From positions 8,746 to 72,745 of the IMG/VR virus record IMGVR_UViG_3300035034_000461: a stretch of DNA of 64,000 nucleotides. One strand, given 5' to 3'. Each line of letters begins with the position of its first letter. Within the stretch, counting starts at the first letter, position 1. A program made the translations under genes and the position numbers. Source of the DNA: a virus. The notes beneath the pieces are model-generated. The model did not search any database. It worked only from the letters and a program-made list of their open reading frames with translations, and was not told the DNA's origin. Shown in pieces: positions 8,518 through 61,539 of the stretch.

Positions 8518-8835
8518 ATGAAAACAATCGCCCAACAACTAAACATCACGGACTTCCCATTCATCATCAAGCATAATAACGGGAAACAAACTTACTACGA
8601 AGATTCGACAGGATATTGGGGCAAACGAGAATATGATTCAAACAGTAACCAAACTTACTTCGAAAATTCGACGGGGTATTGGAGCAAACTTGAATACGAT
8701 TCGAACGGAAACAAAACTTACTACGAAAATTCAGAAGATGACATCATCGACGACAGACCAAAGACAACTTTCACCATGAAGGAAATCGCAGAAAAGCTTG
8801 GTGTTGCTGTAGAAACACTCCAAATCAAAGACTGA
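8518..8835 (+). CDS. MKTIAQQL-family variable repeat protein
   Basis: N-cap, 21-aa repeats, HTH-like C-cap. Confidence 0.9.
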   Translation: MKTIAQQLNITDFPFIIKHNNGKQTYYEDSTGYWGKREYDSNSNQTYFENSTGYWSKLEYDSNGNKTYYENSEDDIIDDRPKTTFTMKEIAEKLGVAVETLQIKD

Positions 8836-8838: not shown

Positions 8839-9156
8839 ATGAAAACAATTGCACAACAACTCAACATTAAGGATTTTCCGTTTACTATCAGAGATAAGAA
8901 AGGCCGCCAGATTTACTACGAAGCTTCGTATGGATACTGGATTAAATATGAATACGATTCGAACGACAATCTAATTCACTGCGAATATTCCGACGGACAT
9001 TGGGCAGAATACGAATACGATTCAAACGGCAATCAGACTTTCTCCGAAGATTCAAAAGGACACATCATCGATAATAGACCAAAGAATACTTTCACCATCA
9101 AGGAACTCGCCGAGAAGCTTGGAGTTCCTGTAGAAACCCTTCGTATCAAAGACTGA
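8839..9156 (+). CDS. MKTIAQQL-family variable repeat protein
   Basis: paralog architecture. Confidence 0.9.
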   Translation: MKTIAQQLNIKDFPFTIRDKKGRQIYYEASYGYWIKYEYDSNDNLIHCEYSDGHWAEYEYDSNGNQTFSEDSKGHIIDNRPKNTFTIKELAEKLGVPVETLRIKD

Positions 9157-9160: not shown

Positions 9161-9541
9161 ATGAAAACAATCGCACAGCAACTCAACGTCAAGGATTTTC
9201 CGTTTATCATCAAGGATAAGAACGGCAATCCGACTTACTTCGAATATTCCGTCGGAAATTGGTCAAAATACGAATACGATTCAAACGGCAATCAAATCTA
9301 CTTCGAAAATTCAGACGGATTCTGGATCAAACGGAAATACGATTCAAACGGCAATCAGACTTACTTCAAATATTCAGACGGATATTGGTCCAAATTCGAA
9401 TATGATTCAAACGGCAAAGAAATCTACTGCGAAGATTCATATGGATATATCATCGATAACAGACCAAAGACTACTTTCACCATGAAGGAACTCGCAGACA
9501 AGCTTGGAGTTGCTGTAGAAACCCTGCAAATCAAAGACTGA
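9161..9541 (+). CDS. MKTIAQQL-family variable repeat protein
   Basis: paralog with one extra 21-aa repeat. Confidence 0.9.
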   Translation: MKTIAQQLNVKDFPFIIKDKNGNPTYFEYSVGNWSKYEYDSNGNQIYFENSDGFWIKRKYDSNGNQTYFKYSDGYWSKFEYDSNGKEIYCEDSYGYIIDNRPKTTFTMKELADKLGVAVETLQIKD

Positions 9542-9545: not shown

Positions 9546-9584
9546 ATGAAAACAATTGCACAACATCGAAACATTAAAGAATAA
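9546..9584 (+). pseudogene. collapsed MKTIAQQL unit (MKTIAQHRNIKE)
   Basis: N-cap start joined to C-cap-like atcgaaac/attaaaga. Confidence 0.65.
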
Positions 9585-9588: not shown

Positions 9589-9849
9589 ATGAAAACAATT
9601 GCACAGCAACTAAACGTTAAAGACTTTCCGTTTATCATCAACGATAAGAACGGGGATACGATCTACTACGAATATTCAGACGGATTCTGGATCAAACGGG
9701 AATACGATTCAAACGGCAATCAGACTTACTTCGAATATTCAGACGGATTCGTCTATAGCGTCGATAATAAACCAAAGAATACTTTCAGCATGAAGGAACT
9801 TGCAGACAAACTGGGAGTTCCAATCGAAACCCTCCGCATTAAAGACTGA
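9589..9849 (+). CDS. MKTIAQQL-family variable repeat protein
   Basis: paralog; true ATG at 9589. Confidence 0.9.
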   Translation: MKTIAQQLNVKDFPFIINDKNGDTIYYEYSDGFWIKREYDSNGNQTYFEYSDGFVYSVDNKPKNTFSMKELADKLGVPIETLRIKD

Positions 9850-15358: not shown

Positions 15359-15362
15359 TAAT

Positions 15363-17939: not shown

Positions 17940-20648
17940 ATGAAAAGAGTAGTAATTAATGAATGTTATGGGGGGTTTAGTCTTTCCCATGAGGCGGTGA
18001 TGCGATACGCAGAACTGGTAGGGATGACGCTATATGCTGATAAAAAATATAGCCGGTATTCCTACTATAAAGTCCCTAAAGAGGAATATGACAAGGAAGC
18101 GAAAAAATCCTTGGAGGAATGTGGGAATTATAAAAATGTCAATAAGATGGGTATATATTTTCACGACCGAGATATAGAACGTGACGATCCCAATCTGATT
18201 AAGGTTGTGGAAGAACTCGGAGAGGCTGCGAATGGGGAGTTCGCTGAACTTAAGATTATTGAAATTCCCGATGACATTCAATGGGAAGTTTCGGAATATG
18301 ATGGCATGGAGTCAATTCATGAAGTGCATAAGTCTTGGTCATAAAAACTAGAATACAATAACGACACAATGAAAGCAACAATATGGAAAGCTTACTATCG
18401 CATGACAATGGGTAGGGAAGTAGCAGACAAAGCAATGGCCAATGCGTCCCTAATGGTGATTAATTTAGAGGGTTCAACGGCTGGAAAAATATCCCATTTT
18501 TATAATAATAATACGGGAGAACAAATTAGGGGCTGGACTAAGAGGAAATACTCATCTTCCACTACCAACCAACATCCTCTAATTACAAAATATAACTGAT
18601 ATGAAATATATAACTTTAGTATTATTCGGAATCATCTCAACAATTTGGGAGGGATATGTCCTGAGTATCGTGTGGTCTTGGTTCATCGCTTCTAAATTTG
18701 ATCTACCAGAATTGGGAGTCGTATCAGCAATTGGATTGATCATGGTTGCGAAGTTCGTAACCTTTGCATATATTCCGGCATATAAAAAGAGCGATGATCA
18801 GGCTACATTCCTACAAATTGTGGAATCAGTTACTTTCCGAGTTACGTATTCCACCATAACTCTCGGAGTGGGATGGATAGTCCACCAATTCGCTTGATAA
18901 AAACTAGAATACAATAACGACACAATGAATACGAAAACACAAACACTGACATCAGATCAGATCATCCACCAATTCGCTTGATAAAAACTAGAATACAATA
19001 ACGACACAATGAATACGAAAACACAAACACTGACATCAGATCAGATTATCAACAATCTACTCAACTCGAAGGGGCAATTTGTCCGAGTCGTGTGGAAGAG
19101 TGATGTTAAACCCGCAGCAATTCACAAGGACAAGGTTCTTGAAAAACGGACAAGTGCCGTGGTTCGATCTGGAGTCAACTTCGCCAATCTTTCCGCTGTG
19201 AAAGAGGGCATTGCCAATGATGAGAGGGGGGAAGTTCAAGAATTACCTTGGGGTCAATGGTTATCATTCCCATATGTCATCGAGCATAAAGATACTCTAT
19301 ATCTCCGTATGTATCCAAGTGATACTAAATCTACCACCGTCTATTATGTCAATGGTGAGACAGTGGATAAGAGCGACTTTATCGCACTTCTTACTCCATC
19401 GGAATCTAAAAAAATCACGGAAGGCGTGGCTCCTCCATGCTTCAACGTGAAGCGTGATAATATCATCTCAACTGAAGATTTTAACGAGGAATAATATGAT
19501 TAAATTTACACAAGAAGATGACATTAAACCAACCCCAACCTTTGGAGACGTTGTAATAGATCAATTCTTCGTAGATGGTGGTCAACTATGGCAAAAAATA
19601 GATTCTACGTCTGCTAATCTAATAGCAGCTGCCAATGGAAATCCATTATCAAATCACGACTCAAAATATCATACAGATGATCCCATTGATAGGATCATCT
19701 CAAAGGTAACTAAAATCGAATTTTAATAATCTCAACAAAACAACATATGACAAAAAACAAAAAAACAGTAAACTGTATCGCACATAACGTAAGTAAGCCA
19801 CAACGGGGAGTTACATGTAACACACCATCTACTAAAGGAGCGTTCGCATGTCTTCATGCTAATCGCGGTGGGGTTGCTAAACTTCGTAAGAGGGGATTCA
19901 CAGACACACAAATTGCAGCAGTGTTCCAACGCGCTGGTATGCCAGTTAATAATATCGCAGTTCACAACTGGTCGAATGTTAATATGACAAGCCGCCCTAA
20001 GATGAAGTTTAAGATGGGAGATCTCGTCAAGCGTGGTAAGGAACTTTTGATCGTGCAATCGTCAAATCCAAAGCTCAAAACTATGGTGCTTATGGACAAG
20101 GACAATAAGAATATGGAGGTTCCTATGAAGCTCTCCATGTTCCGCAAGGTTTTATAAAAACTAGGTTATACTCCACCCATGACAGAAGATAAAAGATTGT
20201 TTGGGTGGAGTGTAAAAAACCTTCGGACAGGGGAGGTTGTGAGATATTCAGCTTCCTATAATTTTCCAGTAACTAAAGATCATGTTATCTAATCTCCGAG
20301 TATTAGCGATTGGGCTGGTGGTGATCCTTTCAGGGTATATCCTCCTGAAGATGGTGAGAAATAGGAAATAATATGACACTTGATAAACTAAAAATAGCAA
20401 TGGATAAGTGGTTTAGTAATCCACAGAATCTAATTGATTTTGAAAAAAAGATGGAAGAAATGAGCAATAGCGATCTTGATCATCTTCCTTGGGAGATGCG
20501 TAAAGAATATTGTTATTGTAAGAAAGAGGAAGATCATTGTGGGACATGTTCATGTGGAAAATCGGGACATATGCGATCAATGGGGATGGGAACAGATACA
20601 TGGTGTGATGAATGTTATCAAATCGATTCCAAACGAATTCTCTATTAA
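17940..20648 (+). CDS. hypothetical proteins (17940..18344, 18369..18599, 18601..18897 membrane, 19009..19494, 19496..19726, 19747..20157, 20373..20648)
   Basis: co-oriented ORFs, several directly after the promoter element. Confidence 0.6.
18881..19046 (+). repeat. 84-bp tandem duplication spanning stop-promoter-start
   Basis: tccaccaattcgcttgataaaaactagaatacaat...cagatcagat at 18881 and 18965. Confidence 0.9.
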
Positions 20649-24639: not shown

Positions 24640-25617
24640 ATGCTATTAAACACACAAGAAACAGGATTCACCAAATGCTCAGAGGTTGCCATTCCCGATG
24701 GCTTCTACAATCGTATGTCCACGGGATGTGATGAAATTGATCTGATGTTTGGAACTGAAGAGTTTCGGGGATTTCTTCCGGGATCTGCTATCACCATTAC
24801 GGGAACTCCCGGGGCGGGAAAAACTACAATGCTTTGTCAAGTTCTCGAAATGCTTAACAAGAACGGTAAAAAAACCGGATATGCTTCGGGGGAAGAGGCT
24901 CAATTTCAAGTAGCCTATACCACCAAACGTCTCGGAGTTACTGATATCGATATCGCTCATATTAAAGATGTTGAAGTGATTGCAGAGGCCATGAAGTCAT
25001 ATGATGTTATGGTTATTGATAGCTTTCAAGCTCTCCGTTCCAATAACGAAAAACTTGGTAAGAAAGCCTTTCTACAATATGCTCAAGATACACTATTGAA
25101 TGCAGCTAAGGATAATGAATGCACGTTGATTTTCGTTCTCCATATTACTACTGGTGGACTTCCTAAAGGTGGCACTGATATTATTCATGCGGTGGATGTC
25201 AATGTAAGTATCACAGTTGATAAAGATGATAAAACTATCCGAGTGATTAATATATATAAAAATCGCTTTGGAGCTACAAAACTTCATAAAGCGACTATGA
25301 CGCATAAAGGCTTCGACTTCCAAGGTGAGTATGTTCCCCCTTCCGATGACGCAAAAGAGGATACTAAATCTCCTCGTAAGCCAATGAGCGAAGAGCGTGA
25401 AGAGGTCGTCATGGGTATCACAGAGCCTCCTCACATCACTCTGCCAAGGGTCATGCAAGACTTGGGGGTAGGTGGTCAAACGGCTGGTATCCTCCTACGT
25501 GAGATGGTAGGTAAGGGCAAGCTTAAAAAGTATGGGAGAGGTGCGGAAGCGATCTGGAAATTTTGCAAAGTTGGTCAAGACATTTATAACAATTATAAAG
25601 AAACACAAAAAGTTTAA
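24640..25617 (+). CDS. RadA/Sms-like RecA-family ATPase
   Basis: STGCDEID, GTPGAGKTT, SGEE, IDSFQ, HAVD, KNRFG. Confidence 0.85.
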   Translation: MLLNTQETGFTKCSEVAIPDGFYNRMSTGCDEIDLMFGTEEFRGFLPGSAITITGTPGAGKTTMLCQVLEMLNKNGKKTGYASGEEAQFQVAYTTKRLGVTDIDIAHIKDVEVIAEAMKSYDVMVIDSFQALRSNNEKLGKKAFLQYAQDTLLNAAKDNECTLIFVLHITTGGLPKGGTDIIHAVDVNVSITVDKDDKTIRVINIYKNRFGATKLHKATMTHKGFDFQGEYVPPSDDAKEDTKSPRKPMSEEREEVVMGITEPPHITLPRVMQDLGVGGQTAGILLREMVGKGKLKKYGRGAEAIWKFCKVGQDIYNNYKETQKV

Positions 25618-25854: not shown

Positions 25855-26115
25855 ATGAAAACAATCGCACAACAACTAAACATTACGTACTTTCCGTTTA
25901 CTATCAAAGATAAGAACGGCAATCAGACTTACTTCGAAAATTCCAACGGATATTGGTTCAAACGTGAATTCGATTCGAACGGCAAAGAAATTTACTTCGA
26001 AAATTCCGATGGCGATATCCTCGATAACAGACCGAAGAAGCATGTCACTCTCACCATAAAGGAAATTGCCGACAAGCTCGGAGTCGATGTAAAAACCCTT
26101 CAAATCAAAGACTAA
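25855..26115 (+). CDS. MKTIAQQL-family variable repeat protein
   Basis: paralog architecture. Confidence 0.9.
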   Translation: MKTIAQQLNITYFPFTIKDKNGNQTYFENSNGYWFKREFDSNGKEIYFENSDGDILDNRPKKHVTLTIKEIADKLGVDVKTLQIKD

Positions 26116-26118
26116 TAT

Positions 26119-26565
26119 ATGAAAACAATCGCACAACAACTAAACGTTACGGACTTTCCGTGCATCATCAAAGATAATAACGGTAAAGAAACTTACTACG
26201 AAGTTTCAGGCGGATATTGGATTAAGCGTGAATACGATTCGAACGGCAATCAGACTTACTACGAAGATTCGACGGGATATTGGGACAAACGTGAATTTAA
26301 TAAAAACGGTAAAGAAACTTACCACGAAAATTCGACGGGATATTGGAACAAACGAGAATTCGATAAGAACGGTAAAGAAACTTACTACAAAGATTCGACG
26401 GGATATTGGGACAAACGAAAATTTAATAAGAACGGGAAAGAAATTTACCACGAAAATTCGACATCTGGCGTTATCACCGGCAATAGACCAAAGGTAACTC
26501 TCACACTACAAGAAATCGCCGAAAAGCTCGGTATCGATGTAAAAACCCTTCAAATCAAAGACTGA
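26119..26565 (+). CDS. MKTIAQQL-family variable repeat protein
   Basis: paralog with more repeats. Confidence 0.9.
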   Translation: MKTIAQQLNVTDFPCIIKDNNGKETYYEVSGGYWIKREYDSNGNQTYYEDSTGYWDKREFNKNGKETYHENSTGYWNKREFDKNGKETYYKDSTGYWDKRKFNKNGKEIYHENSTSGVITGNRPKVTLTLQEIAEKLGIDVKTLQIKD

Positions 26566-26669
26566 TATTATGAAACTACTACTCCTTGCATCTTCTGCCG
26601 CTGTATCGTCAAGCGACGCGCATGGGAGCTTGAGCTTTGGAATCGCGGAAACACACAAACAGTAAAAAG

Positions 26670-27227
26670 ATGAAAGAACATCTAATGATTGATCTCGAGA
26701 CGCTCGGGACGGTATCAAACACGGTCATCACCAGCATCGGTGCAGTGTTATTCGATTCAAACGGGCGAGTAATCGATGAATTTCATTCAGACGTGTCGAT
26801 GGCATCGTGCGTAGATCTTGGTATGAAGATCGATCCAGCCACGATGTCTTGGTGGATGGGCCAAAGCAAGGTCGCTCAGGCTCACATCGTTCTACCAGAC
26901 GAGACCAAACGCACACTCGGCGAAGCTCTATTACACCTTTCTGACTTTCTCCATGAGGTTGCGGCCGATCCGAGCGAAACCAGAGTATGGGGCAACGGAG
27001 CTTCGTTCGATAACTCGATGATGCAATATTCTTACAAATTGGTAGGTGAGGAGTTGCCGTGGAAGTTCTGGAATGATCGCTGTTTCCGCACGGTGAAGAA
27101 TATATGTGGACATATTAAGCCCGATCCGCGCCTTGGAACTCACCACGACGCCTTAGACGACGCGAAGCATCAGGCTAGTCACCTCATCAAAATCTCTCGA
27201 GCGTACCCAAATGTCCTCGACACATAG
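26670..27227 (+). CDS. DEDDh 3'-5' exoribonuclease (Rv2179c-like)
   Basis: MIDLETLG, WGNGASFD, HHDALDDA; higher GC than flanks. Confidence 0.85.
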   Translation: MKEHLMIDLETLGTVSNTVITSIGAVLFDSNGRVIDEFHSDVSMASCVDLGMKIDPATMSWWMGQSKVAQAHIVLPDETKRTLGEALLHLSDFLHEVAADPSETRVWGNGASFDNSMMQYSYKLVGEELPWKFWNDRCFRTVKNICGHIKPDPRLGTHHDALDDAKHQASHLIKISRAYPNVLDT

Positions 27228-27300
27228 TTGAAAATAATGAAATTAGTGGTGTACAAACCGCTGAAAGTATGGTAGAATTATCTAGTAAGGAAACTATATT

Positions 27301-27681
27301 ATGAAAACAATCGCCCAACAACTAAACGTTAAGGATTTTCCATTTATCATCAAAGATAAGAACGGTAAACGAACTTACTCTGAAGATTCGACGGGGTATT
27401 GGAGCAAACGAGAATATGATAAAAACGGTAAACAAACTTACTACGAAGATTCCAACAGATATTGGTGCAAACGAGAATTCGATAAGATCGGGAATCAAAC
27501 TTACTTCGAAGATTAGACGTATTGGAGCAAACGAGAATCTGATTCTAACGGCTGCGAAATTTACTTAGAAGATTCGACATCTGGCGTTATCACCGATGAC
27601 AGACCGAAGGTAACTTTCACTATCAAAGAGATCGCCGAAAAGCTCGGTATCGATGTAAAAACCCTTCAAATTAAAAAATAA
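27301..27681 (+). pseudogene. MKTIAQQL-family paralog with premature TAG
   Basis: TCG to TAG at 27514-27516; the frame continues to an intact C-cap ending 27681. Confidence 0.85.
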
Positions 27682-27707: not shown

Positions 27708-27784
27708 TCTCCTATAGCTCAATCGGTTAGAGCGTCATTTTCATAAAGTGGGGGTTCTTGGTTCAAGTCCAAGTGGGAGAACCA
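27708..27784 (+). tRNA. tRNA-CAT (likely Ile2)
   Basis: cloverleaf TCTCCTA...TT CAT AA...TTCAAGT...TGGGAGA A CCA; directly upstream of tilS. Confidence 0.85.
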
Positions 27785-27804
27785 ATTTTAATATATATAT
27801 AAAC

Positions 27805-28419
27805 ATGATCAAAGTATTTCCAGACATCCCCAAAAAGTTTACCTTACTGGTATCTGGTGGCGTTGATAGTGTGGTGGCCTGCGTGTGGCTCAAAAAAGTA
27901 TATAGAAAAGAATTTGAAGTTCTCCACTTCAATCATAATATACAAGAGTCAAATCGGTTCATGGAAAGTTCAGTATTGAGCCTATGTAAAGATTTGAATA
28001 TCAACATTTCGGTGATATTCAAGCCAAAGGGGGGGGATGTATCGGAAAATAGTCTGAGAGCTTGGAGACTTTCAAATTTAAAATCCATCGGTGGAAACTT
28101 CATAACGGCTCATCACATGGGAGATGTAAAGGAAAACTATCTTTCGAATTGTATTAAGGGTCATGGTGGTCACGTTCCCATCGCAAAGCATACTGACCTC
28201 AATTCATACACAAAAGTATATCATCCATTTCTACTGACAAATAAAGACGACTTCGTTGAATACGCTAAAAATGAAAAATTGCGACGATACATTGTAGAAG
28301 ATCCCACAAACACTTCCATGTGTCACACGAGAAACTGGATCAGAAAAATGATTGGAGAGATGGAAGATCGTGGACTTGGCATGGAGAAAATGATCAGGAG
28401 AAACTTTTATAAAAACTAG
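27805..28419 (+). CDS. tilS: tRNA(Ile)-lysidine synthetase (catalytic domain only)
   Basis: SGGVDS PP-loop, HFNH, TAHH..D..E, PFL, EDPTN, RNWIR. Confidence 0.85.
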   Translation: MIKVFPDIPKKFTLLVSGGVDSVVACVWLKKVYRKEFEVLHFNHNIQESNRFMESSVLSLCKDLNINISVIFKPKGGDVSENSLRAWRLSNLKSIGGNFITAHHMGDVKENYLSNCIKGHGGHVPIAKHTDLNSYTKVYHPFLLTNKDDFVEYAKNEKLRRYIVEDPTNTSMCHTRNWIRKMIGEMEDRGLGMEKMIRRNFYKN

Positions 28420-31400: not shown

Positions 31401-33633
31401 CACTCAGGAAAAACTTATACTAATATTTTGAGTTCTTCGAGTTCTTCGAATTTGGATGGGTATACAGTAACTATTATCACGGAAATCAATGTCACTTACA
31501 CGGAGACAATTACCAAAAATACAACAATCACTTTATAAAAACTAGAGTAAGATATGGACATGATGAATATCCAATACGACAACACCGCAAAAGTCAAAGC
31601 TGAAGCAGATAGGAATGAAAATCTTATCAATCGTGTGGATGCCAAGGTGAAAGGGTTCGCTAAGTATAACACGCCTGAGTGTATTATCGGGAAGAATGCT
31701 TACAACGTCAACGGGTGCAAGGTTGGGAAAGTGGAAGCGGTATCCAGAGACTCTCTAGTTATCCGTGGTCAATGGCAACGGGTGGAAGAGTGGAAACCTA
31801 CGCCATGGACTGCTGAAGAGAAGGAGGCGTATTGGAATCACCGCAAGGTGGAATCTGAAAGAATTCACAATCAAACGCAAATATTCTATTACAATCTAAG
31901 GGAAAAGGCAAAGCTTCGCAAGGAATTCACTGGCCGATAAAAAATAGGATATTATAACGACATGTGGACAACTAAGAAATTTACAACCTCCAAAAAGCTC
32001 AAAGAGTGGACGGAAAATAATCATCACAAATACCAGATCGTGGAGATTGCAATTAATAATGGATGGGCAGTTGATTACAAGATGCTGCGAATCATTGGGT
32101 AAAAACTACAACACACTAGCAACATGACAACGGAAGAGGTTCACAACAGTCTATGTTCCTATGATACCAGAAATACTTTATATGCGGACAACCTCGTGTG
32201 CCACGACGCTGGAGATATCCCTACGGCGCGGGAAGGTTGCTATTGCGATAATTGTTTCTCTGGAAGAGACGCGCTGGCAGTGGAAGTCTTAAGGTATCGA
32301 GAAAAACTTGGAGAGTGGACGGAAAATAACACCCACAGATACCAAACGTGTAATTAAATATTAGTATGTCCAGAAAAGTAAATCACTGGCCGATAAAAAC
32401 TACAATAGACTGAGGACATGCAAGACAAACAATGTAACTGCTGTGAACCATTGGGTAAAAACTAGAATATAATAAGGACATGAAGATGACACTAAGCACA
32501 CACGATATCGCACACGAACTTTATAACGATAATAATTCAGATTTTTCTTGGAACGGGGCAAACGCTCTCGCGGAATATCTGAGTCAACTGGAAGATGACA
32601 TGGGGGAAACACTTGAATTTGATAAGGTCGGAATCAGTTGTGATTTCTCGGAATATAATAGCCTTGTGGAATGGGCTAAGGATTACTTTTCAGACTGGAG
32701 AGAAGATCTTTATATTGAAGAAGATGCGGATGAAGATGATATTGATAGCGTTATCCAAGATTACATTTACGATCATGGCCAACTCATTGAATTTGACGGC
32801 GGAATCATCGTATCATCTTTCTAAGATAACTCTCTGATTATCAAAGAGTTAATAAAACGTAAAAACTAGAATACAATAACGCCATGACGAAAGAAGAACT
32901 TAGAGTAAAGTATCCTGACATTGCAATCGAAACCATTTGGGTGCAAGATCCATATTTCAGTTGGGATGGAGATGGGGAAGATCCAAGGGGTAGTGGTTAT
33001 TTTCCCTATGATGTGGAAGTAAGAGCTACGAGAATTACCAATGGGGAACTTGTGGAAGGATCTGCTCATATAGGAGGATCATATTCAAGGGAAGGTGAAC
33101 ATTGCCCTGATATTAATGGAAATTTCCGACAACTGGCACGGGAAGCAATTGAGAATTGCCTTAAGGGAATTTAAGTTATGTTACACGGAAAAATAGATTT
33201 CATTCTAATCTTAACAGCCATAATTTTATTTCTTGTGGGAATGTGGCAATTCGCACTACTAGCTCTCTTTATTATGTTTATCTTTTCATCATCTGATGAT
33301 CGATCGTAAAAACTAGGATATACTAAGGACATGACAAACCAAGAAAAAGCACAAGAATTCAAATCAACCTGCGAAAAATACGGGTTCACTTATTCATTCA
33401 CTCCTAGCGTGATCAGAGTATTTAAGACAATTCCAATTGGAGATCATATAGCCTTCCGTGAGTGTGATATGATGGTGGGAAGCGTTCTAAGTAAAGCTCC
33501 TCTAAGGGGTGGTAGTGAGTGGGGAACGGATGGAGGGAGTATCGGTGGAATGACTGCAATCAACACCGGAAAATTTCAAATGAATAAGTCCGGTTCTGGT
33601 AAGGCATTTATCAATGCACTAGCAAAGATCTAA
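28437..33633 (+). CDS. array of small early hypothetical proteins (28437..28718, 28750..29082, 29296..29487, 29492..29758, 29773..30069, 30101..30322, 30322..30537, 30542..31105, 31281..31538, 31560..31940, 32124..32357, 32480..32824, 32884..33174, 33331..33633)
   Basis: nearly all start directly after the promoter element; several are very acidic. Confidence 0.65.
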
Positions 33634-33659
33634 TATAAAAACTAGGATAGAATGACAAT

Positions 33660-34334
33660 ATGAAAACAATCGCACAACAACTAAACGTTAAAGACTTTCC
33701 GTATATCATCACAGATAAAGACGGTAATCAAACTTACTTCGAAGATACGTACGGATTTTGGAACAAACGAGAATATGATAAAAACGGTAAAGAAACTTAC
33801 TTCGAAAATACGACGGGATATTGGAGCAAACGAAAATTTAATAAGAACGGGAAAGAAATTTACCACGAAAATTCGACATCTGGCGTTATCACCGATGACA
33901 GACCAAAGACAAACTCAGAGTTCCTGCCAAACCCCTTCGCATCAAAGACTATTATGAAAACAATCGCACAACAACTAAACGTTACGGACTTTCCGTTCAT
34001 CATCAAAGATAATAACGGTAAAGAAACTTACTACGAAGATTCGAAGGGATATTGGCTCAAACGAGAACATGATAAGAACGGTGAACGAACTTACTACGAA
34101 GATTCGACGGGACATTGGGTCAAACGAAAATTTGATAAAAACGGTAAACAAACTTACTACGAAGATTCGTACGGATATTGTTACAAAAGGGAATTTGATT
34201 CGAACGGTAAAGAAACTTACCACGAAAATCCGGATGGAAAGGTCATCGATAATAGGCCAAAGGTAACTTTCACTATCAAAGAGATCGCTGAAAAGCTTGG
34301 AGTTGCTGTAGAGACTCTAAGGATCAAAGAGTAA
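33660..34334 (+). CDS. MKTIAQQL-family fused double unit
   Basis: two units joined by TNSEFLPNPFASKTI. Confidence 0.9.
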   Translation: MKTIAQQLNVKDFPYIITDKDGNQTYFEDTYGFWNKREYDKNGKETYFENTTGYWSKRKFNKNGKEIYHENSTSGVITDDRPKTNSEFLPNPFASKTIMKTIAQQLNVTDFPFIIKDNNGKETYYEDSKGYWLKREHDKNGERTYYEDSTGHWVKRKFDKNGKQTYYEDSYGYCYKREFDSNGKETYHENPDGKVIDNRPKVTFTIKEIAEKLGVAVETLRIKE

Positions 34335-34355
34335 AAACTAGGATATACTGAGGAC

Positions 34356-34592
34356 ATGCAAGACAAACCAAAGACATTCCGCAATTCTAAAGGTGAACAA
34401 GAAACCATCAAATGGCCAAAGGGTAAAGTCATTTCCAATGTGGGAGACGTTTATCTTATTCAACAAAGTAAGCACTTATTTGCCACCGTTTACGGATTGG
34501 AAGTGAAAGAAGGGTTTATATTAGACGACGCTATTTCATCCTTTGGATATTCCGCATATCATCAAGCGGAATGCGAAGGACTCACTAAGTAA
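34356..34592 (+). CDS. hypothetical protein
   Basis: MQDKPKT start shared with 39305. Confidence 0.6.
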   Translation: MQDKPKTFRNSKGEQETIKWPKGKVISNVGDVYLIQQSKHLFATVYGLEVKEGFILDDAISSFGYSAYHQAECEGLTK

Positions 34593-34613
34593 AAACTAGA
34601 ATACAATAAGGAC

Positions 34614-35225
34614 ATGAAAACAATCACCCAACAACTAAACGCTAAAGACTTTCCGTATATCATCAAAGATAAAGACGGTAATCAAACTTACTACGAAGAT
34701 ACGTACGGATTTTGGAACAAACGAGAATTCGATAAAAACGGCAATCAGACTTACTACGAAGATTCGACGGGATATTGGGACAAACGTGAATATGATTCGA
34801 ACAGTAACCAAACTTACTTCAAAATTTCGACATCTGGCGTTATCATCGATAACAGACCAAAGACAAACTCAGAGTTCCTGCCAAACCCCTTCGCATCAAA
34901 GAATATTATAAAAACAATCGCACAACAACTAAGCGTCACAGACTTTCCGTTTCGTATCAGAGATAAGAACGGGAAAGAAACTTACCACGAAGATTCAGAC
35001 GGATATTGGTTCAAACGAGAATTCGATAAAAACGGGAAACAGACTTACTACGAAATTTCGACGGGATATTGGATTAAACGTGAATTTGATTCGAACGGCA
35101 ATCAAATCTACTTCGAAGATTCCCACGGAGGTATCATCGATAACAGACAAAAGAATACTTTCACCATCAAGGAATTCGCAGACAAGCTTGGAGTTGCCGT
35201 AGAAACCCTGCAAATCAAAGACTGA
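34614..35225 (+). CDS. MKTIAQQL-family fused double unit
   Basis: same linker as 33660. Confidence 0.9.
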   Translation: MKTITQQLNAKDFPYIIKDKDGNQTYYEDTYGFWNKREFDKNGNQTYYEDSTGYWDKREYDSNSNQTYFKISTSGVIIDNRPKTNSEFLPNPFASKNIIKTIAQQLSVTDFPFRIRDKNGKETYHEDSDGYWFKREFDKNGKQTYYEISTGYWIKREFDSNGNQIYFEDSHGGIIDNRQKNTFTIKEFADKLGVAVETLQIKD

Positions 35226-35228
35226 TAT

Positions 35229-38200
35229 ATGAAAACAATTGCACAACAACTAAACATCAAAGACTTTCCATTCAAGATCAAGGATAAGAACGGTAAAGAA
35301 ACTTACTACGAAGATTCTGACGGATATTGGAACAAACGTGAATATGATTCGAACGGGAAAGAAACTTACTTCGAAGATTCGACGGGATATTGGATTAAAC
35401 GTGAATACGATTCGAACGGCAACATCAATTACTCCAAAAATTCCGGAGGGTATTGGGTAAAATACGAACACGATTCGAACGGCAATGAAATTTACTACGA
35501 AAATTCGACAGGACATATCATCGATAAAAGACCAAAGACAACTTTCACCATCAAGGAATTCGCAGACAAGCTTGGAGTTGCTGTAGAGAGTCTAAGGATC
35601 AAAGGGTAAAAACTAGGATATACTGAGGACATGAAAACAATCGCCCAACAACTAAACATCACAAGCTTTCCGTTCATCATCAAGGATAAGAACGGGAAAG
35701 AAATTTACCACGAATATTCCGACGGACATTGGGCAAAATACAAATACGATTCAAACGGCAATCAAACTTACCACGAAGATTCGACATTTGGCGTTATCAC
35801 CGATGACAGACCAAAGACTACTTTCACCATCAAGGAGATCGCCGAGAAGCTTGAGAAGCTTGAGAAGCTAGTAGTTGCCTTAGAAACCCTGCAAATCAAA
35901 GACTGATATATGAAAACCATCGCACAACAACTAAACGTTACTGACTTCCCGTTCATCATCAAAGATAAAAACGGCAATCGAATCTACTTCGAATATTCAG
36001 ACGGATATTGGTTCAAATACGAATACGATTCGAACAGTAACCAAACTTACTACGAAATTTCGACGGGATATTGGAGCAAACGAAAATCTAATAAGAACGG
36101 GAAAGAAACATACTACGAAGATTCGACGGGGTATTGGCGTAAACGAGAATATGATTCGAACAGTAACCAAACTTACTACGAAAATTTAGACGGATTCTGG
36201 ATCAAACGGGAATACGATTCAAACGGCAATCAGACTTACTTCAAAAATTCAGACGGATATTGGGCAAAATACGAATACGATAAGGACGGTAATCAAGTTT
36301 ACTCCGAAGATTCCGATGGAATCATCGTCGATAGAAGACCAAAGGTCACTTTCACCATGAAGGAAATCGCCGAGAAGCTTGGAGTTGCCGTAGAAACCCT
36401 GCAAATCAAAGACTGATATATGAAAACAATTGCACAACAACTAAGCATTAAAGACTTTCCGTTTATCATCAAGGATAAGAACGGCAATCGAATCTACTTC
36501 GAATGTTCCGACGGGTATTGGGTAAAACGGGAATACGATTCAAAGGGCAAAGTAATTTACTGCGAAGATTCCGAAGGATATTGGGTAAAACGCGAATACG
36601 ATTCTAACGGTAATAAGACTTACTTCGAAAATTCACATAAAACCATTATCAACAACAGACCAAAGACTACTTTCACCATGAAAGAAATCGCCCAGAAGCT
36701 TGGCGTTGCTATAGAAGCCCTTCAAATCAAAGACTAATATTATGAAAACAATTGCACAACAACTAAGCATTAAAGACTTTCCATTTATTATCACAGATAA
36801 AGACGGCAATCAGACTTACTCTGAAGATACTTACGGATTTTGGAACAAACGAGAATATGATGAAAACGGTAAAGAAACTTACTTCGAAAATACGACGGGA
36901 TATTGGAGCAAACGAGAATACGATAAAAACGGTAAACAAACTTACTCCGAAAATTCCAAAGGACTTTGGATCAAACGAGAATATGATTCAAAGGGCAAAG
37001 AAACTTACTCCGAAGATTCCAACGGATTTTGGATCAAACGAGAATACGATAAAAACGGTAAAGAATCTTACTACGAAAATTCCGATAGAGGAATCATCGA
37101 CAACAGACCAAAGAAGCATGTCACTCTCACCATGAAAGAAATCGCCCAGAAGCTTGGCGTTGCTATAGAAACCCTGCAAATCAAAGACTAATATTATGAA
37201 AACAATTGCACAACAACTAAGCATTAAAGACTTTCCGTTTATCATCAAGGATAAGAACGGTAAACGAACTTACTCTGAAGATTCATACGGATATTGGTTC
37301 AAACGAGAATATGATAAAAACGGTAAACAAACTTACTCCGAAGATTCCAACGGATTTTGGAGCAAACGAGAATACGATTCGAACGGAGGTCTAAGCTACT
37401 TCGAAAATTCCAACGGATATTGGTCAAAATACGAATACGATTCGAACGGCAATGAAATCTACTGCGAAGATTCATATGGATATATCATCGATAACAGACC
37501 AAAGAATACTTTCACCATCAAGGAGATCGCCGAGAAGCTTGGAGTTGCCGTAGAGAGTCTAAGGATCAAAGGGTAAAAACTAGGATATACTGAGGACATG
37601 AAAACAATTGCACAACAACTAAGCGTCACAGACTTTCCGTTTCGTATCAACGATAAGAACGGCAATACGATCTACTTCGAAAATTCAGACGGATTTTGGG
37701 TAAAATACGAATTTGATAAAAACAGCAATCAGACTTACCACGAAAATTCAGACGGATATTGGTCCAAATTCGAATATGATAAGAACGGGAAAGAAACTTA
37801 CCACGAAAATTCATATGGATATATCATCGATAATAGGCCAAAGGTCACTTTCACCATGAAGGAACTCGCAGACAAGCTTGGAGTTGCTGTAGAAACCCTG
37901 CAAATCAAAGACTGATATATGAAAACCATCGCCCAACAACTAAGCATTAAAGACTTTCCGTTTATCATCAAAGATAAAAACGGGAAACAAACTTACTTCG
38001 AAAATTCCGACGGATATTGGGTAAAACGGGAATACGATTCAAAGGGCAAAGTAATTTACTGCGAAGATTCCGAAGGATATTGTTACAAATTCGAATACGA
38101 TTCGAACGGCAAAGAAATTTACTCCGAAGATTCCGATGGATTCTGGTCCAAATACGAATACGATTCGAACGGCAATCAGACTTACTACGAAGATTCAGAC

Positions 38201-38638
38201 GGATATATCATCGATAACAGACCAAAGAATACTTTCACCATCAAGGAGATCGCAGACAAGCTTGGAGTTGCCGTAGAGAGTCTAAGGATCAAAGAGTAAA
38301 AACTAGGATATACTGAGGACATGAAAACAATCGCCCAACAACTAAACATTAAAGACTTTCCGTTCATCATCAAGGATAAGAATGGCAATCTAATTCACTC
38401 CGAATATTCAGGCGGATATTGGGTAAAATTCGAATACGATTCAAAGGGCGATCAGACTTACTGCGAAGATTCAGACGGATTCTGGATTAAATGGGAATAC
38501 GATTCGAACGGCAATCAAATCTACTACGAAAATTCCGATGGATATATCATCGATAACAGACCAAAGAATACTTTCACCATCAAGGAGATCGCAGACAAGC
38601 TTGGAGTTGCCGTAGAAACCCTTCAAATCAAAGACTGA
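35229..38638 (+). CDS. nine tandem MKTIAQQL-family paralogs (35229..35609, 35631..35906, 35910..36416, 36420..36737, 36742..37191, 37196..37576, 37598..37915, 37919..38299, 38321..38638)
   Basis: conserved caps, variable number of 63-bp repeats. Confidence 0.92.
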
Positions 38639-38642
38639 TATT

Positions 38643-38894
38643 ATGAAAACAATTACACAAGACATTCTCAAAGCTTCTCGTATCCAAACCATCTACGAAG
38701 ATGTGGATGGTAAGATTACAATCGAAGATATGGACGCCGTGGTCGGAGGGGGATTGGATGAATTTTATATTATCGTATCCGGTGAGTATCTAACCATTGA
38801 CATCTACCCTAGCGACATCGCAAGAGTGTTGGGGGATATGATCATCTTTGATAAAGTATCTGATTATACTAATATCGTATTGCGTCTATATTAA
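38643..38894 (+). CDS. hypothetical protein with MKTITQ start fused to an unrelated body
   Basis: first codons match the paralog N-cap, the rest is unrelated. Confidence 0.6.
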   Translation: MKTITQDILKASRIQTIYEDVDGKITIEDMDAVVGGGLDEFYIIVSGEYLTIDIYPSDIARVLGDMIIFDKVSDYTNIVLRLY

Positions 38895-38962
38895 ACGAAA
38901 GACTTGATACTTCGATTCCAGTCGGATATATCACTTTATAAAAACTAGAATACAATAAGGAC

Positions 38963-40149
38963 ATGAAAACAATCGCACAACAACTAAACATCAAAGACTT
39001 TCCGTTTATTATCACAGACAAAGACGGTAATCAAACTTACTCCGAAAATTCCAACGGATTTTGGAGCAAACGTGAATATGATTCGAACAGTAACCAAACT
39101 TACCACGAAAATTCGACGGGATATTGGCACAAACGAGAATTCGATAAAAACGGTAAAGAAACTTACTTAGAAATTTCAACATCTGGCGTTATCATCGACA
39201 AAAGACCAAAGGTAACTCTCACACTACAAGAAATCGCTGAAAAGCTTGGAGTTGCTGTAGAGAGTCTAAGGATCAAAGAGTAAAAACTAGAATAGACTAA
39301 GGACATGCAAGACAAACCAAAGACAACTCAGAACCCCTTCGCATCAAAGACTATTATGAAAACAATCACACAACAGCTAAACGTCAAAGATTTTCCGCTT
39401 ATCATTAAAGATAATAAAAAAACTCACTCCGAAGATTCAGATAGATCTTGGATCAAACGAGAATATAATTCGGAAGGATACCTAACTTTCTCCGAAGACC
39501 GAACAGGATACTGGATCAAACGAGAATATAATTCGGAAGGTTTCGAGACCTTCACGATAGATTCAAATACGTCTTGGATCAAACGAGAATATGATTCGGA
39601 AGGTAAGGAAATCTACTCCAGAAATTCAGCCGACGAGATCATCGACAACAGACCATAGACAACTTGGAGTTGATATTAAAACCCTCCGCATTAAAGACTA
39701 ATAATATGAAAACAATCGCGCAACAACTAAACATTAAGGACTTTCCGTTTATCATCAAGGATAAGAACAGTAAACAAACTTACTTCGAAGCTTCGTACGG
39801 ATATTGGGTTAAGCGTGAATACGATAAGATCGGTAACCAAACTTACCACGAAGATTCGAAGGGATATTGGAGCAAACGAGAATTTGATTCGAACGGTAAA
39901 CGAACTTACTACGAAGATTCCAACGGATATTGGAGCAAACGTGAATATGATTCGAACAGTAACCAAACTTACTACGAAAATTCGAAGGGATATTGGAGCA
40001 AACAAAAATTTGATAAAAACGGTTTCGAAACTTACTACGAAAATTCAGACGGCGTTATCATCGACAACAGGCCAAAGGTAACTTTCACTATCAAAGAGAT
40101 CGCAGACAAGCTTGGAGTTGCTGTAGAGAGTCTAAGGATCAAGGAGTAA
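38963..40149 (+). CDS. three MKTIAQQL-family paralogs (38963..39283, divergent and truncated 39305..39658, 39706..40149)
   Basis: paralog architecture; C-cap remnant LGVDIKTLRIKD after 39658. Confidence 0.85.
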
Positions 40150-40281
40150 ATCTAGGATAGACTATATAATTTTGAAGTTATGCCAAGATTTGAATCATAC
40201 TCACAAGGTCACCATAGAATCAAAGAGGGCTTTGCAGTTGAAGGCATTTTCGAACGGTAAAAACTAGGATATACTGAGGAC

Positions 40282-41541
40282 ATGACAGCAACCGACATTA
40301 AAAATTTACTCGCGGACATTGTTCCAAACGCTCATGTAATTATCAAGGAGAAACAATGCCTCGGTAGTTCATATATCGCAATACACATTGCAGCAAGTGA
40401 TTATCTTATTAACGATGTAAGGGGACAATTCCCCGCGCATGTTTCTCTATCCTTTGACCCAAAGACTCTGGAACTTGGGGTGCAAATCTTTGGAGGGATG
40501 GGAGGGCAATCAATTTATCGCAATATTGACCCTACAATCGACAAGGAACGTCATAATGTTCTGGGACGCATCAGGCTACCTTTCCGCCGTCCTATGGCCA
40601 ATCCTGAGGCAATCAAACGGGCAATCTCCAAGTTTGCAGAGAATTGGAAGAAAGCAATTAAAGACAATATGGAACTTATGCGGTTTATTGATAAAGTGGA
40701 TTACGAGAAAGCCATTTCGTAAAAACTAGGATAGAATAGGGACATGACAAAGCAATACACCGTTTCAACCAAATTACAAAGCAACGACAAGCTTTTCCCT
40801 TTCGCGGGGATGATTAATAACGTTAAAGTTGTATCGTGTCAAACCGATCAAAACGCTATGGAAGGCGCGGAAAGAATCTTAAAAGTCTTACAAGATTGCA
40901 AAGCTGGCTTAAGAGACTCAAGCGGCAGTGGAATCGACATTGATAAACTTGACAAAGCACTTGGCAATCGGTAAAAACTAGCGTAAACTGAACCTATGCA
41001 AGACATGATCATTACCCTTCCCAAAGAATTGAAGAAATCCATGGACAAAGGATATCTGGAAGTGGAATCTTTGGTGGTTTTCCTTTTTGTGGAAAAAGGA
41101 TTCTCCAATCCATTGGGTAAGAAATTCAGAGATACCGCATTGCGAGACTTAACCAAAGATGGGCGTCATATTCGTAGTTGCTCAATCGATGCAGAAACGG
41201 GAGATATGCACATAAAGTTTGCGTAAAAACTAGGATACAATAACACTATCATGAAAAACAAGACATTCTACATGTTTATCGGAGATAACGATAACCAATT
41301 GAAAAATAAGAGTAAGCGATTTGTCGTCTTAGCTGATACTATCAAGGATACTAATCAAGCACAATTCATTGGAGTGGTGGTTGCAACTAATAAGAAAGCC
41401 GCGCATTCAATTGGAGAGGAAAGTTACAATTGGGGAAACCCTTTGTATGACATGGCGCGTGGGAGTTATCCGCCCTTTGTTCCTGTTTCCTCTGAGTTCA
41501 TTCTAGCCAACTTTGATAAGAGCAATCTTAGTAAAAACTAG
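40282..41541 (+). CDS. early hypothetical proteins (40282..40722, 40744..40974, 40996..41226, 41251..41541)
   Basis: each follows a promoter element. Confidence 0.65.
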
Positions 41542-41707: not shown

Positions 41708-41782
41708 GCGCTTGTAGCTCAAGGGTAGAGCAAACGACTCATAATCGTTAGGTTACTGGTTCGAATCCAGTCGGGCGCACCA
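41708..41782 (+). tRNA. tRNA-Ile2(CAT)
   Basis: GCGCTTG...AACGA CT CAT AA TCGTT...TTCGAAT...CGGGCGC A CCA; GACTCATAATC loop as in bacterial ileX-type tRNA. Confidence 0.9.
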
Positions 41783-48933: not shown

Positions 48934-48981
48934 AAGTTGACTTTACCACGACAATATGATAAAGTCAACTTAAATAAGAAA

Positions 48982-50493
48982 ATGCAGCACTTCAAGATGT
49001 TTTATGAAAATATGGAAGATAACTTTTCCGGTAAGTGGGAGGATGCTTTGCGCTCTTCTGAGGAGCTTTCCGTAGCAGTTGATCTCATGGGTAATATGAA
49101 GTCCAAGATCTCGGGAGAGATTTATATAGTGGGGGGAGTTCCCCGCGATCTTTTGATGGGAGGAGAGATTGATGATGTGGATCTGGCAACCAACATGCCC
49201 TTTGAAGAGATTGCCAAACATTTCAAAATTGCCAATATATCTAAGAACGATTCCCAACCTGTGTATGCAATCAAGTGGAAAGATTACACTTACGATCTTG
49301 CCAAGTTCCGTGAGGATTCCGGTGATCTAGGAAGGCAGAATAATGTTTCAAAAGAAACGGACTCCTTTGAATCGGATACATCCAGAAGAGACATATCGAT
49401 CAATGCTTTTGGTATGGATGAAAATGGAACTCTTGTGGATTACCAAGGAGGTATTCAGGATTTGGAAAATAAGATCATCCGTGCTGTGGGAGATGCTAAA
49501 CAGAGATTCAAGGAAGATGCCACTCGTATTCTTCGGGTGTTTCGGTTTGCTGCTAAGATGGACTTTGATATTGAGGAAAAAACCAAAGCTGCTGCCATCG
49601 AACTTAAAGATCTTCTCAGCGACCCCTCTGCGATCTCCATGGAATCCATATCCAAAGAGTTTTATAAATCAGCTAAGTCTGGAAGAACTCTTTCTAACTT
49701 TTTAAAGAAGCTTCAAGACACGGGAATCCTACATGACATTCTACCCGAGTTCACAAGCATGGAAGGATTTGACCACAATCCCGAACACCACCCCGAGGGG
49801 GATTCTCAAGTTCTGGGACATATATATGAATGTCTCAATGTATCTCCCTACAATGATCCTGTGATAAATCTGGCAGTCCTTTTCCACGATTTCGGAAAGG
49901 CTACTACCCGTGGAACAAGCGATTCAGGACATTCCAATTATCATGGACATGAAGGGGCAGGGGTTCCTATTGTTGAAGATATTTTCAACCGTCTTCGATT
50001 CGCTGAATTATCGGCAAATGATAAGAAAAATATATTATTCGCGGTGGATCGTCATATGCTTATTCATAAGTTGGATGATCTTACCATGAAGACCCTAGTC
50101 AAGCTTATCCAAAATCCGGCGTGGGAAGTTGTCAAGGCTGTGGGGTATTGTGATGAAGCTTCGCGTGGATCGGGACATTTTGACGCAAAAGCATTTGAAG
50201 AGAAGATTCAAAGAGCGGAAGAGCGGGTTGCTAAAGTTGGGGGAAATGATCCCAATGCTGGTAGAGAAGTTATCAAAAAATACGTGGATGGTAACAAACT
50301 CATGCAGTGGTTCCCCGCCCTTAAAACCGATAAGAGTAAGTTCAAGGATATTATGTCTGGAATGCAGGAGTATATTATGAACTCTCTGGAACAAGGAACG
50401 GAACCCAACGAAGAAGAGCTTAAAAATATCGGCAATGGGATTTTATCAGAATCGCGGTTTGATATTTTATATAGACGAATCCTTTCTAAATAA
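48982..50493 (+). CDS. cca: CCA-adding enzyme / tRNA nucleotidyltransferase with HD domain
   Basis: VGGVPRD..DDVDLAT, RRDISINA, EDATRILR, LFHDFGK; ATG 5 nt after TAAATA. Confidence 0.9.
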   Translation: MQHFKMFYENMEDNFSGKWEDALRSSEELSVAVDLMGNMKSKISGEIYIVGGVPRDLLMGGEIDDVDLATNMPFEEIAKHFKIANISKNDSQPVYAIKWKDYTYDLAKFREDSGDLGRQNNVSKETDSFESDTSRRDISINAFGMDENGTLVDYQGGIQDLENKIIRAVGDAKQRFKEDATRILRVFRFAAKMDFDIEEKTKAAAIELKDLLSDPSAISMESISKEFYKSAKSGRTLSNFLKKLQDTGILHDILPEFTSMEGFDHNPEHHPEGDSQVLGHIYECLNVSPYNDPVINLAVLFHDFGKATTRGTSDSGHSNYHGHEGAGVPIVEDIFNRLRFAELSANDKKNILFAVDRHMLIHKLDDLTMKTLVKLIQNPAWEVVKAVGYCDEASRGSGHFDAKAFEEKIQRAEERVAKVGGNDPNAGREVIKKYVDGNKLMQWFPALKTDKSKFKDIMSGMQEYIMNSLEQGTEPNEEELKNIGNGILSESRFDILYRRILSK

Positions 50494-61466: not shown

Positions 61467-61539
61467 TGGAGAATAGTCGCAGAATCGAACTGCGGATCGA
61501 GGATTTGGATACCCCACCTTACCACTCGGCTAACCATTC
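61467..61539 (-). tRNA. atypical tRNA, Cys-like body with CCA anticodon
   Basis: acceptor, D and T arms intact, U73-CCA; imperfect anticodon arm GGGGT AT CCA AA TCCTC. Confidence 0.55.

Follow-up and report, generated by a model that had tools for sequence, protein, structure and literature searches.

Why should a large, uncultured lake-water phage devote ~9 kb of its genome to some two dozen paralogues of one small repeat protein, an outlay that is unusual in itself? The question is raised by a 64,000-nucleotide stretch of viral DNA (hereafter the window; G+C content 38.6%), which comprises bases 8746-72745 of the linear, 72,745-base IMG/VR virus record IMGVR_UViG_3300035034_000461, judged by CheckV to be ~35% complete. 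An earlier reading of the sequence alone (the original prediction) had counted 21 open reading frames (ORFs) with 23 repeat units in three clusters and had proposed that they form a diversified set of binders. Translating the matches of a six-frame N-cap search (25 matches, plus strand only) to the stop gave the same count: four ORFs in cluster 1 (8518-9849), three in cluster 2 (25855-27681), the third of which is interrupted by an in-frame TAG, and 14 ORFs with 16 units in cluster 3 (33660-40149), all on the plus strand. The reading favoured here, to which a probability of about 45% is given for its structural and binding parts jointly, is that these proteins are soluble, capped mini-YD modules that constitute a paralogous repertoire of binders with different specificities. 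It is ranked ahead of the rivals in which the array serves gene dosage, nucleic acid binding or carbohydrate binding.

Each unit follows the same plan, in which a constant N-cap is followed by one to five full 21-residue repeats plus a half repeat and then by a constant C-cap, with a conserved Ile-Ile-Asp-Asn-Arg-Pro-Lys boundary after every repeat run and its half repeat. Tandem Repeats Finder detected a 63-bp period throughout, and each of the 58 full repeats extracted is exactly 21 residues long; one, two, three, four and five full repeats are found in 3, 10, 6, 3 and 1 units, respectively. The framework residues had been described as near-invariant, and they are: Y4 and E6 are each kept in 53/58 repeats, S8 in 51/58, G10 in 55/58, W12 in 56/58, K14 in 57/58, D18 in 52/58, N20 in 48/58 and G21 in 50/58, while position 17 is Tyr or Phe in 55/58. 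The units are 86-168 aa long, and their isoelectric points (pI) lie between 4.7 and 8.8, with 15 of the 20 scored ORFs net negative. A DNA mimic or a strongly basic DNA binder is ruled out by this non-extreme pI.

The fold of these units was approached with an AlphaFold2 model of a 126-aa member (37196..37576, plus strand, three full repeats), which was built with 45 homologues and reached a pLDDT of 94.1 and a pTM of 0.72. The model has nine beta-strands between helices at residues 4-7 and 108-115, the second of which leads through a turn into a further short helix (119-121). The N-cap combines a short helix with a strand, and the repeats are predicted to form an open, single-layer beta-hairpin sheet. 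Foldseek against the PDB returned 32 matches at E ≤ 0.001, mostly Rhs, teneurin or Tc proteins, the best being RhsA (7q97_A; E 1.9e-5, rmsd 1.6 A, 82 columns); the YD shells of these proteins were matched with an rmsd of 1.3-2.5 A across 82-90 columns. VIA-align likewise paired the model with an Rhs core (8qja_A; Z 11.6, rmsd 2.8 A, 89 residues). At the sequence level, a profile of the family matched 11,154 cluster representatives at E ≤ 1e-3 and 3,868 at E ≤ 1e-10, including giants of 2,000-7,700 aa, and proteins of 2165-2576 aa were found at E values of 1e-46 to 3e-51. Pfam RHS_repeat stretches numbered 23-31 in each of the four giants scanned. Because the family profile matches giants rich in RHS_repeat, the repeat is a true YD repeat, and the beta-hairpin scaffold of YD/Rhs type that had been suggested is supported by model, structure comparison and profile alike.

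Direct domain scans of members against Pfam, PHROGs and NCBIfam gave nothing above threshold. RHS_repeat (PF05593) was not listed at E ≤ 1 for any of the four window members scanned and appeared at that level in 6 of 45 family members (best E 0.0091), and NCBIfam RHS_core scored 15.7 bits against a cut-off of 2000. Three of the four members scanned fell into no PHROG, the fourth giving a weak match (E 0.0084) to a PHROG of unknown function, and the named clusters of the ESM Atlas, with Rhs families set aside, yielded no usable match. Pfam scans of the window members contained no toxin or core domain. A homodimer prediction with two copies scored 0.00, which makes no call in either direction.

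To our knowledge, YD repeats have been described almost exclusively in very large proteins of the Rhs, Tc and teneurin groups, where they build the shell. The present family shares with such proteins (PF05593; Rhs effectors of the type VI secretion system, Tc toxin B-C and teneurins) the beta-hairpin repeat of ~21 residues and its Y-D-x-N-G turn. Rhs proteins, however, close dozens of repeats into a shell, whereas the units described here have 1-5 repeats in a predicted open sheet with dedicated N- and C-caps. They also differ in having no core or autoproteolysis domain, toxin domain or secretion signal, in being 86-168 aa long, viral and present in tandem multiple copies, and in the failure of window members to reach the Pfam threshold. 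Since closed shell, core domain and toxin domain are all missing, these are stand-alone mini-YD proteins and not Rhs toxins. The novelty lies in a YD repeat that makes up a small protein of its own, capped at both ends, 86-168 residues long and essentially specific to viruses.

Where do the copies differ? In the window, entropy is highest at repeat position 13 (3.07 bits), followed by positions 9 (2.55), 2 (2.25), 5 (2.22) and 7 (1.93), and falls to 0.13-0.67 bits at the even positions 4-18. The same odd/even alternation occurs in 175 repeats from 33 other loci, in which the even positions were partly imposed by the search pattern. At position 13, directly after the Trp, all 12 residues listed in the original prediction were seen and additionally Tyr, which stands behind both repeats with Cys in place of Trp. 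The modelled strands correspond to repeat positions 2-6 and 12-17. Taken with these predicted strands, the odd/even alternation implies one conserved face (Y4, E6, W12, K14, E16) and one variable face (5, 13, 15 and 17; the adjoining turn carries 7 and 9). The diversified surface claimed earlier is thus partly supported, in that variability lies on odd positions 5-19 and conservation on even positions 4-18, the single face being deduced.

Whether selection drives this diversity was assessed from the proportions of non-synonymous (pN) and synonymous (pS) differences in 27 disjoint nearest-repeat pairs, since all 1485 pairs together are saturated and non-independent. Framework positions gave a pN/pS of 0.27. 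The variable positions gave 1.05 (95% confidence interval 0.78-1.42) relative to the global pS and 2.05 relative to the pS of their own codons (Fisher p 0.03), and position 13 was borderline at 1.51 (0.99-2.15). A ratio at or below neutral had been named as an argument against a diversified surface; the value of ~1.05 falls on that line, so that positive selection is neither shown nor excluded.

The caps tell how old and how constrained the copies are. Their pS of 0.45 (N-cap) and 0.49 (C-cap) means that the copies are old at the synonymous level, and their pN/pS of 0.18 and 0.24 indicates that selection acting on the protein maintains the caps. Together with the 1,570 homologues found by a word-indexed search (69-221 aa, E ≤ 1e-3), this purifying selection shows that the feature is not a product of chance.

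The repeats behave differently at the nucleotide level. At the six two-fold framework codons (Y4, E6, K14, E16, D18, N20), the minor synonym occurs in 2 of 303 cases, compared with 37 of 253 at conserved two-fold cap codons (Fisher p 1e-11). Codon bias is excluded as the cause of this frozen framework, because TAC and AAC make up 25% and 32% of their codon pairs in 35 other window genes and because the Tyr codon depends on the repeat position, being TAC at position 4 (53/53) and TAT at position 11 (37/38). Other phages use different synonymous codons, which are again uniform within each genome. For instance, the framework of L007, the contig with the largest array found elsewhere, is written with TAT (23/23), GGC (22/23) and AAT (20/23), that of L004 with TAT (24/26) and AAG (21/26), and L016 and L014 use GAG in 9/9 and 8/8 cases. 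In a tree of the caps (56 columns, poorly resolved), the window copies group together, with 3 label changes versus 14.8 after shuffling. Framework codons that are uniform within genomes and different between genomes point to concerted evolution by recombination, in which the repeats of one genome exchange sequence.

Further traces of exchange are found within the array. For 50 of the 58 repeats, the closest nucleotide match (0.73-0.94 identity) lies in another gene, and the unit at 36742 is a mosaic whose repeats 1-2 are nearest to 33660 and whose repeats 3-4 are nearest to 37196. Synonymous variants of S8 and G21 are linked to the adjacent variable codon as discrete cassettes. Association between codons was measured by Cramer's V restricted to codons seen at least 5 times, the all-codon version being dominated by rare codons; it reached 0.59-0.82 with p ≤ 0.0005 in four of five adjacent pairs and was mostly non-significant at 14 or more codons apart. 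The reshuffling by recombination envisaged in the original prediction is accordingly supported, by length steps of 21 aa, cross-gene best matches, genome-specific codons and a decay of association within a single repeat. Mechanistically, the ~60 repeats of this genome trade sequence through unequal crossing-over and short tracts of gene conversion. Such exchange holds the framework codons nucleotide-identical, alters repeat number in 63-bp steps, moves short variable cassettes from repeat to repeat, and now and then fuses or truncates units.

It has also been considered that recombination is itself the purpose of this architecture. The array would then be a diversity generator whose frozen framework provides homology arms, so that shuffling of a limited stock of loop and strand cassettes, along with changes in repeat number, would constantly yield new combinations on the variable face and match variable host proteins such as defence effectors or toxins, a logic like that of antigenic-variation or variable-lymphocyte-receptor cassette systems. 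This extension is regarded as unlikely. Targeted hypermutation by a diversity-generating retroelement (DGR) is rejected as extremely improbable. Although every residue at position 13 could be encoded by NNC, no reverse transcriptase (RVT_1) is present in the 72.7-kb record, itself ~35% complete, and the codon changes are not adenine-specific, as variable codons change at all bases. Moreover, position-13 codons end in C 40 times, in A 11 times and in T 7 times, no pair of template and variable repeats was seen, and Trp is common at position 13 in L007.

The favoured reading, a repertoire of binders, builds on these two features of a stable framework and a variable face. The even-numbered framework residues would hold the sheet together, and the odd residues 5, 7, 9, 13 and 15, which lie on the other predicted face and the adjoining turn and differ between repeats and copies, would form a ligand-binding surface. 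The two dozen paralogues would then be a repertoire of binders with differing specificities, made from the promoter-dense small-gene region of the phage. Their targets are probably host proteins; components of defence systems or toxins are one candidate group, given the analogy with immunity proteins built of beta-hairpin repeats. As for the constant caps, they may only seal the ends of the sheet or may also dock on a common partner. Indirectly, the diversity appears to be maintained, because homogenisation has erased synonymous variation in the framework and has not erased the neighbouring amino-acid variation.

Small beta-hairpin-repeat proteins that bind other proteins do exist. The immunity proteins of the MORN-variant (PF07661) and YwqK type are small and cytoplasmic, consist of ~22-residue beta-hairpin repeats and bind a protein toxin. 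They serve here as the precedent for a binder or anti-toxin role, by which an anti-defence activity is plausible as an analogy. MORN_2 (PF07661) gave weak, sub-threshold matches in 3 of 45 family members (best E 0.081); the consensus differs, however, and no toxin gene is adjacent as in those systems. Open, solvent-exposed sheets without a hydrophobic core are known from the central sheet of OspA and from the TCP domain of CPAP/SAS-4, the latter binding a peptide along its face according to the title of the PDB entry. Both likenesses are weak (OspA mutants, Foldseek E ~1e-3; CPAP TCP domain, VIA-align Z 4.5) and come with no sequence relationship. Paralogue-rich, lineage-specific families of variable repeats with a constant terminal module, presumed to act in host interaction, are also found in large DNA viruses, such as the ankyrin/PRANC proteins of poxviruses and the ankyrin, MORN and FNIP proteins of giant viruses. 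This analogy is functional only, since alpha-helical ankyrin repeats differ from a YD beta-sheet, the hosts are eukaryotic and there is no homology.

Several points nevertheless weigh against a repertoire of binders. Homology searches point to no binding function or target, and no conserved neighbour family that would point to a pathway emerged when 1481 ORFs of the window plus 36 other loci were clustered all against all; the two next-largest clusters were alternative-frame ORFs overlapping the repeats. The single variable face is read from sequence periodicity and predicted strands. The pN/pS of 1.05 reported above, being ~1, is as compatible with surface residues free of constraint as with diversifying selection. 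At S8 and G21 the third bases, although synonymous, are also highly diverse and tightly linked to the adjacent variable codons, indicating that not all diversity in the repeats needs selection. The 27301 and 39305 units and the stub at 9546 are degenerate or broken, which implies that individual copies are dispensable. An early time of expression is assumed from gene layout, and the long-range order of the array rests on one assembly, as public contigs span it in short pieces only.

Part of this evidence would suit a dosage array, in which many near-equivalent copies supply one abundant early protein, each group from its own promoter, and the variation is a neutral by-product. Concerted evolution is the usual mark of such arrays, pN/pS is ~1 at the variable positions, several promoter-like elements lie inside the array, and the existence of poly-unit homologues of up to 1780 aa suggests that having many units matters. 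If the variation were neutral, though, it should have been erased together with the synonymous variation of the homogenised framework (2/303), yet the odd positions keep up to 3 bits. The copies also range in length from 86 to 168 aa, and the spread of pI from 4.7 to 8.8 suggests that their products are not equivalent. Dosage is thus considered unlikely as the explanation, while being the most credible of the alternatives.

A second rival starts from the C-cap, which weakly resembles a helix-turn-helix (HTH). If it were a working HTH, it would bind DNA or RNA, such as the ~50 promoter-like elements described below, and the YD sheet would be an adjustable spacer or protein-contact module. Sub-threshold HTH matches were found in the C-cap among 45 members (Sigma70_r4 in 19, MerR in 6, Sigma70_r4_2 in 6, HTH_11 in 4 and HTH_17 in 2), the Sigma70_r4 match reaching a weak best E of 0.0062, and residues 108-121 of the model run through helix, turn and short helix. 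Natural HTH regulators were recovered by a C-cap profile at E 0.05-0.9 only, and all HTH matches stay under the curated cut-offs, the best in the window being MerR with 16.1 bits against 28.2. The tail comprises only ~22 residues with neither a wing nor a third helix, and the members are mostly acidic, as noted above. Homologues keep the N-cap and repeats and swap the tail for unrelated ones. Against PDB sequences, the top matches of the C-cap profile were designed helical repeat proteins, with scores inflated by their own repetition, which argues that the tail is a generic alpha-alpha hairpin. Nucleic acid binding through the C-cap is consequently doubtful and is rated below dosage.

Still less probable is a role in carbohydrate or envelope binding, with the aromatic-rich beta-hairpin repeats acting as decoration or adsorption modules. 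YD repeats and hairpin repeats of the choline-binding type are often surface-binding modules, and Tyr, Phe and Trp account for 10-19% of residues in the present family. The proteins, however, have no signal peptide, and their genes lie among small non-structural ones, with no structural gene identified beside them and none annotated beside the copy in Verrucomicrobia phage P8625 (see below). No Pfam cell-wall-binding repeat was listed for window members at E ≤ 1.

How widespread is the family? The lengths of the 1,570 homologues peak at ~105, 127 and 148 aa, in steps of one repeat, and all of them are unnamed or labelled 'hypothetical' or 'YD repeat-containing'. A further 62 longer forms, of up to 1,780 aa, comprise among others poly-unit proteins and fusions of units to other C-terminal domains. 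The family is nearly confined to viruses: its closest Atlas clusters are 100% viral, and a survey of prokaryotes with one genome for each of 185,579 species returned eight loci, all on short contigs from single-cell or metagenome assemblies. Relatives lie on 35 IMG/VR loci. Arrays also occur on other phage contigs, with 10 tandem copies in L007 and 3-5 copies in L003, L004, L006 and L008-L010. Directly before the ten-copy array (L007:861-2394) are two ORFs of 204 and 272 aa, which by eye appear single-strand-annealing recombinase-like and exonuclease-like.

Among 50,697 phage records, P8625 alone has a copy. Its gene 42, annotated as a hypothetical protein, is 54% identical over 129 residues and differs in being a single copy with a divergent N-terminus and another C-terminal tail; a RecT-family gene lies 3.6 kb upstream of it. 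As to the window itself, its 696-aa ORF had no match in the phage collection, its CCA-adding enzyme reached a best identity of 34% and its ATPase had distant RadA-like matches only, indicating no close cultured relative and allowing no host assignment. A full-text literature search brought up nothing on this family or on small phage proteins made of YD repeats, as judged by listings and the openings of abstracts.

The family has thousands of relatives in aquatic metagenomes without a Pfam or PHROG family, and it offers a clean natural viral example in which nucleotide-level homogenisation of a framework coexists with persistent diversity at defined positions. If the proteins are binders, they would define a new class of proteins with which phages interact with the host or counter its defences, and would offer protein engineers a compact beta-sheet scaffold whose length is naturally adjustable. 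Should they not be, naming the family and finding its function would still be needed, as many uncultured phages of lakes and the sea carry it.

Could the array be an assembly artefact, or decaying repetitive DNA with no working feature? Five public runs, all from lake-water metagenomes, contain the stretch, and none of them is listed as RNA. Short-read assemblies break up here, no public contig spans the array, and three units are broken. Mapping of contigs indicated three joints, two of which begin at 33655 and skip 676 and 6602 bases; both have just 20 letters on the shorter side and fall at the repeated promoter-like element, and for these reasons they are treated as ambiguities of the assembly graph. 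On the other hand, 18 units have full open frames with caps under purifying selection, and no two repeats are identical (best nucleotide matches 0.73-0.94), which makes collapse or expansion during assembly unlikely. Contigs of two runs, X1 and X2, cover 30/30 and 29/30 bins, mostly at 99% identity or above, one of these possibly being the source sample, and similar arrays stand on independent contigs. An artefact or decaying DNA is hence highly improbable.

The genes are embedded in a region marked by a conserved 14-nt element, AAAACTAGRATAYA, which occurs 54 times in the window, 52 of them on the plus strand, against 0.26 expected. Its form of ~20 bp reads TAAAAACTAG(G/A)ATAnA(A/C)T and is distributed over 1880-46566 (e.g. 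25833, 33309 and 40260). Among 48 sites examined, the distance from the end of the TAnAAT-like part to an ATG is 8 nt in 33 and 11 nt in 10, and the element has no -35 partner. A sigma-70 scan of 33000-41000 found 15 promoter-like sites (21 expected) and one terminator-like site (6.5 expected). The element is therefore no promoter of the classical -35/-10 kind and resembles a phage-specific one that would give nearly leaderless transcripts. From ~1.9 to 46.6 kb, the plus strand is a run of small genes behind such elements, which looks from its layout like a host-takeover region. The original prediction had placed many copies behind early promoter elements; AAAACTAGRATAYA, a putative early promoter, does stand directly before 8 of the 21 ORFs. 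Most other family ORFs begin 3-4 nt after the preceding stop.

All features of the following inventory are on the plus strand. In cluster 1, two units of 105 aa with two full repeats (8518..8835 and 8839..9156) precede one of 126 aa with three (9161..9541), a remnant stub of 12 aa that holds the start of the N-cap only (9546..9584), and a unit of 86 aa with one full repeat (9589..9849). Cluster 2 opens with a unit of 86 aa and one full repeat (25855..26115), directly preceded by a promoter-like element, and continues with one of 148 aa and four full repeats (26119..26565). In its third unit (27301..27681), the in-frame TAG falls at codon 72. The protein collection contains an uninterrupted variant (P0011) in which a sense residue takes this place, so that the TAG represents a polymorphism, an error of sequencing or a recent pseudogene.

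Cluster 3 begins with two fused double units, each behind a promoter-like element: 33660..34334 (224 aa, 2 + 3 full repeats; element at 33638..33651) and 34614..35225 (203 aa, 2 + 2 full repeats; element at 34592..34605), the internal start codon of the latter being changed to Ile. Their common fusion linker is the frame-shifted remnant of a deleted C-cap. The next units are 35229..35609 (126 aa, three full repeats) and 35631..35906 (91 aa, one full repeat; element at 35609..35622), which bears a 9-bp tandem insertion in its C-cap (35844-35869). The longest unit, 35910..36416, has 168 aa and five full repeats and is followed by 36420..36737 (105 aa, two full repeats), by the mosaic 36742..37191 (149 aa, four full repeats) and by the modelled member already described. 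Beyond it are 37598..37915 (105 aa, two full repeats; element at 37576..37589), 37919..38299 (126 aa, three full repeats) and 38321..38638 (105 aa, two full repeats; element at 38299..38312).

The distal part of the cluster is less regular. A chimera of 83 aa at 38643..38894 joins the first six residues of the N-cap to an unrelated body without a family match, which suggests recombination at the shared gene start. After the unit at 38963..39283 (106 aa, two full repeats; element at 38941..38954) stands a divergent one of 117 aa with three repeats (39305..39658; element at 39283..39296), which has lost its C-cap by deletion and whose N-terminal extension is a C-cap remnant in another reading frame. 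The last unit, 39706..40149, has 147 aa from its ATG and four full repeats, with the frame open back to a TTG at 39664. Beyond the 21 ORFs there are hence three remnants or outliers, namely the 9546 stub, the 38643 chimera and a unit just upstream of the window. The latter (L037:7879-8772, on the same record) is embedded in a 297-aa protein as an N-cap with two repeats, flanked by an N-terminal (~140 aa) and a C-terminal (~65 aa) domain, neither of which had a Pfam match.

Other features of the window were recorded as well. Eleven tRNA genes are located at 61467-62378 (minus strand), 27708-27784 and 41708-41782. Six of the anticodons (Glu-TTC, Lys-TTT, Gly-TCC, Asn-GTT, Trp-CCA and Gln-TTG) correspond to codons that are frozen or most frequent in the repeats (GAA, AAA, GGA, AAC, TGG and CAA). 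TAC (Tyr) and GAT (Asp) are just as frozen and have no cognate tRNA gene; the correspondence may be coincidental. Pfam matches identify a CCA-adding tRNA nucleotidyltransferase with an HD domain (48937-50493), a T4-type RNA ligase (5030-6109), a Dam-type N6-adenine methyltransferase (16896-17774) and a KaiC/RadA-like ATPase (24640-25617). These four ORFs and the tRNAs suggest a set for tRNA repair or maintenance that is typical of large phages. In or next to cluster 2, two ORFs outside the family show by eye DEDD-exonuclease-like motifs (26637-27227) and a PP-loop (SGGxDS) motif (27748-28419). Repetition is also seen elsewhere in the window: an 18-bp tandem repeat of 13.5 copies (15504-15746) lies within the ORF 15306-15962, and an 84-bp direct duplication (18881-19050; 98% identical) has doubled a promoter-like element together with a gene start.

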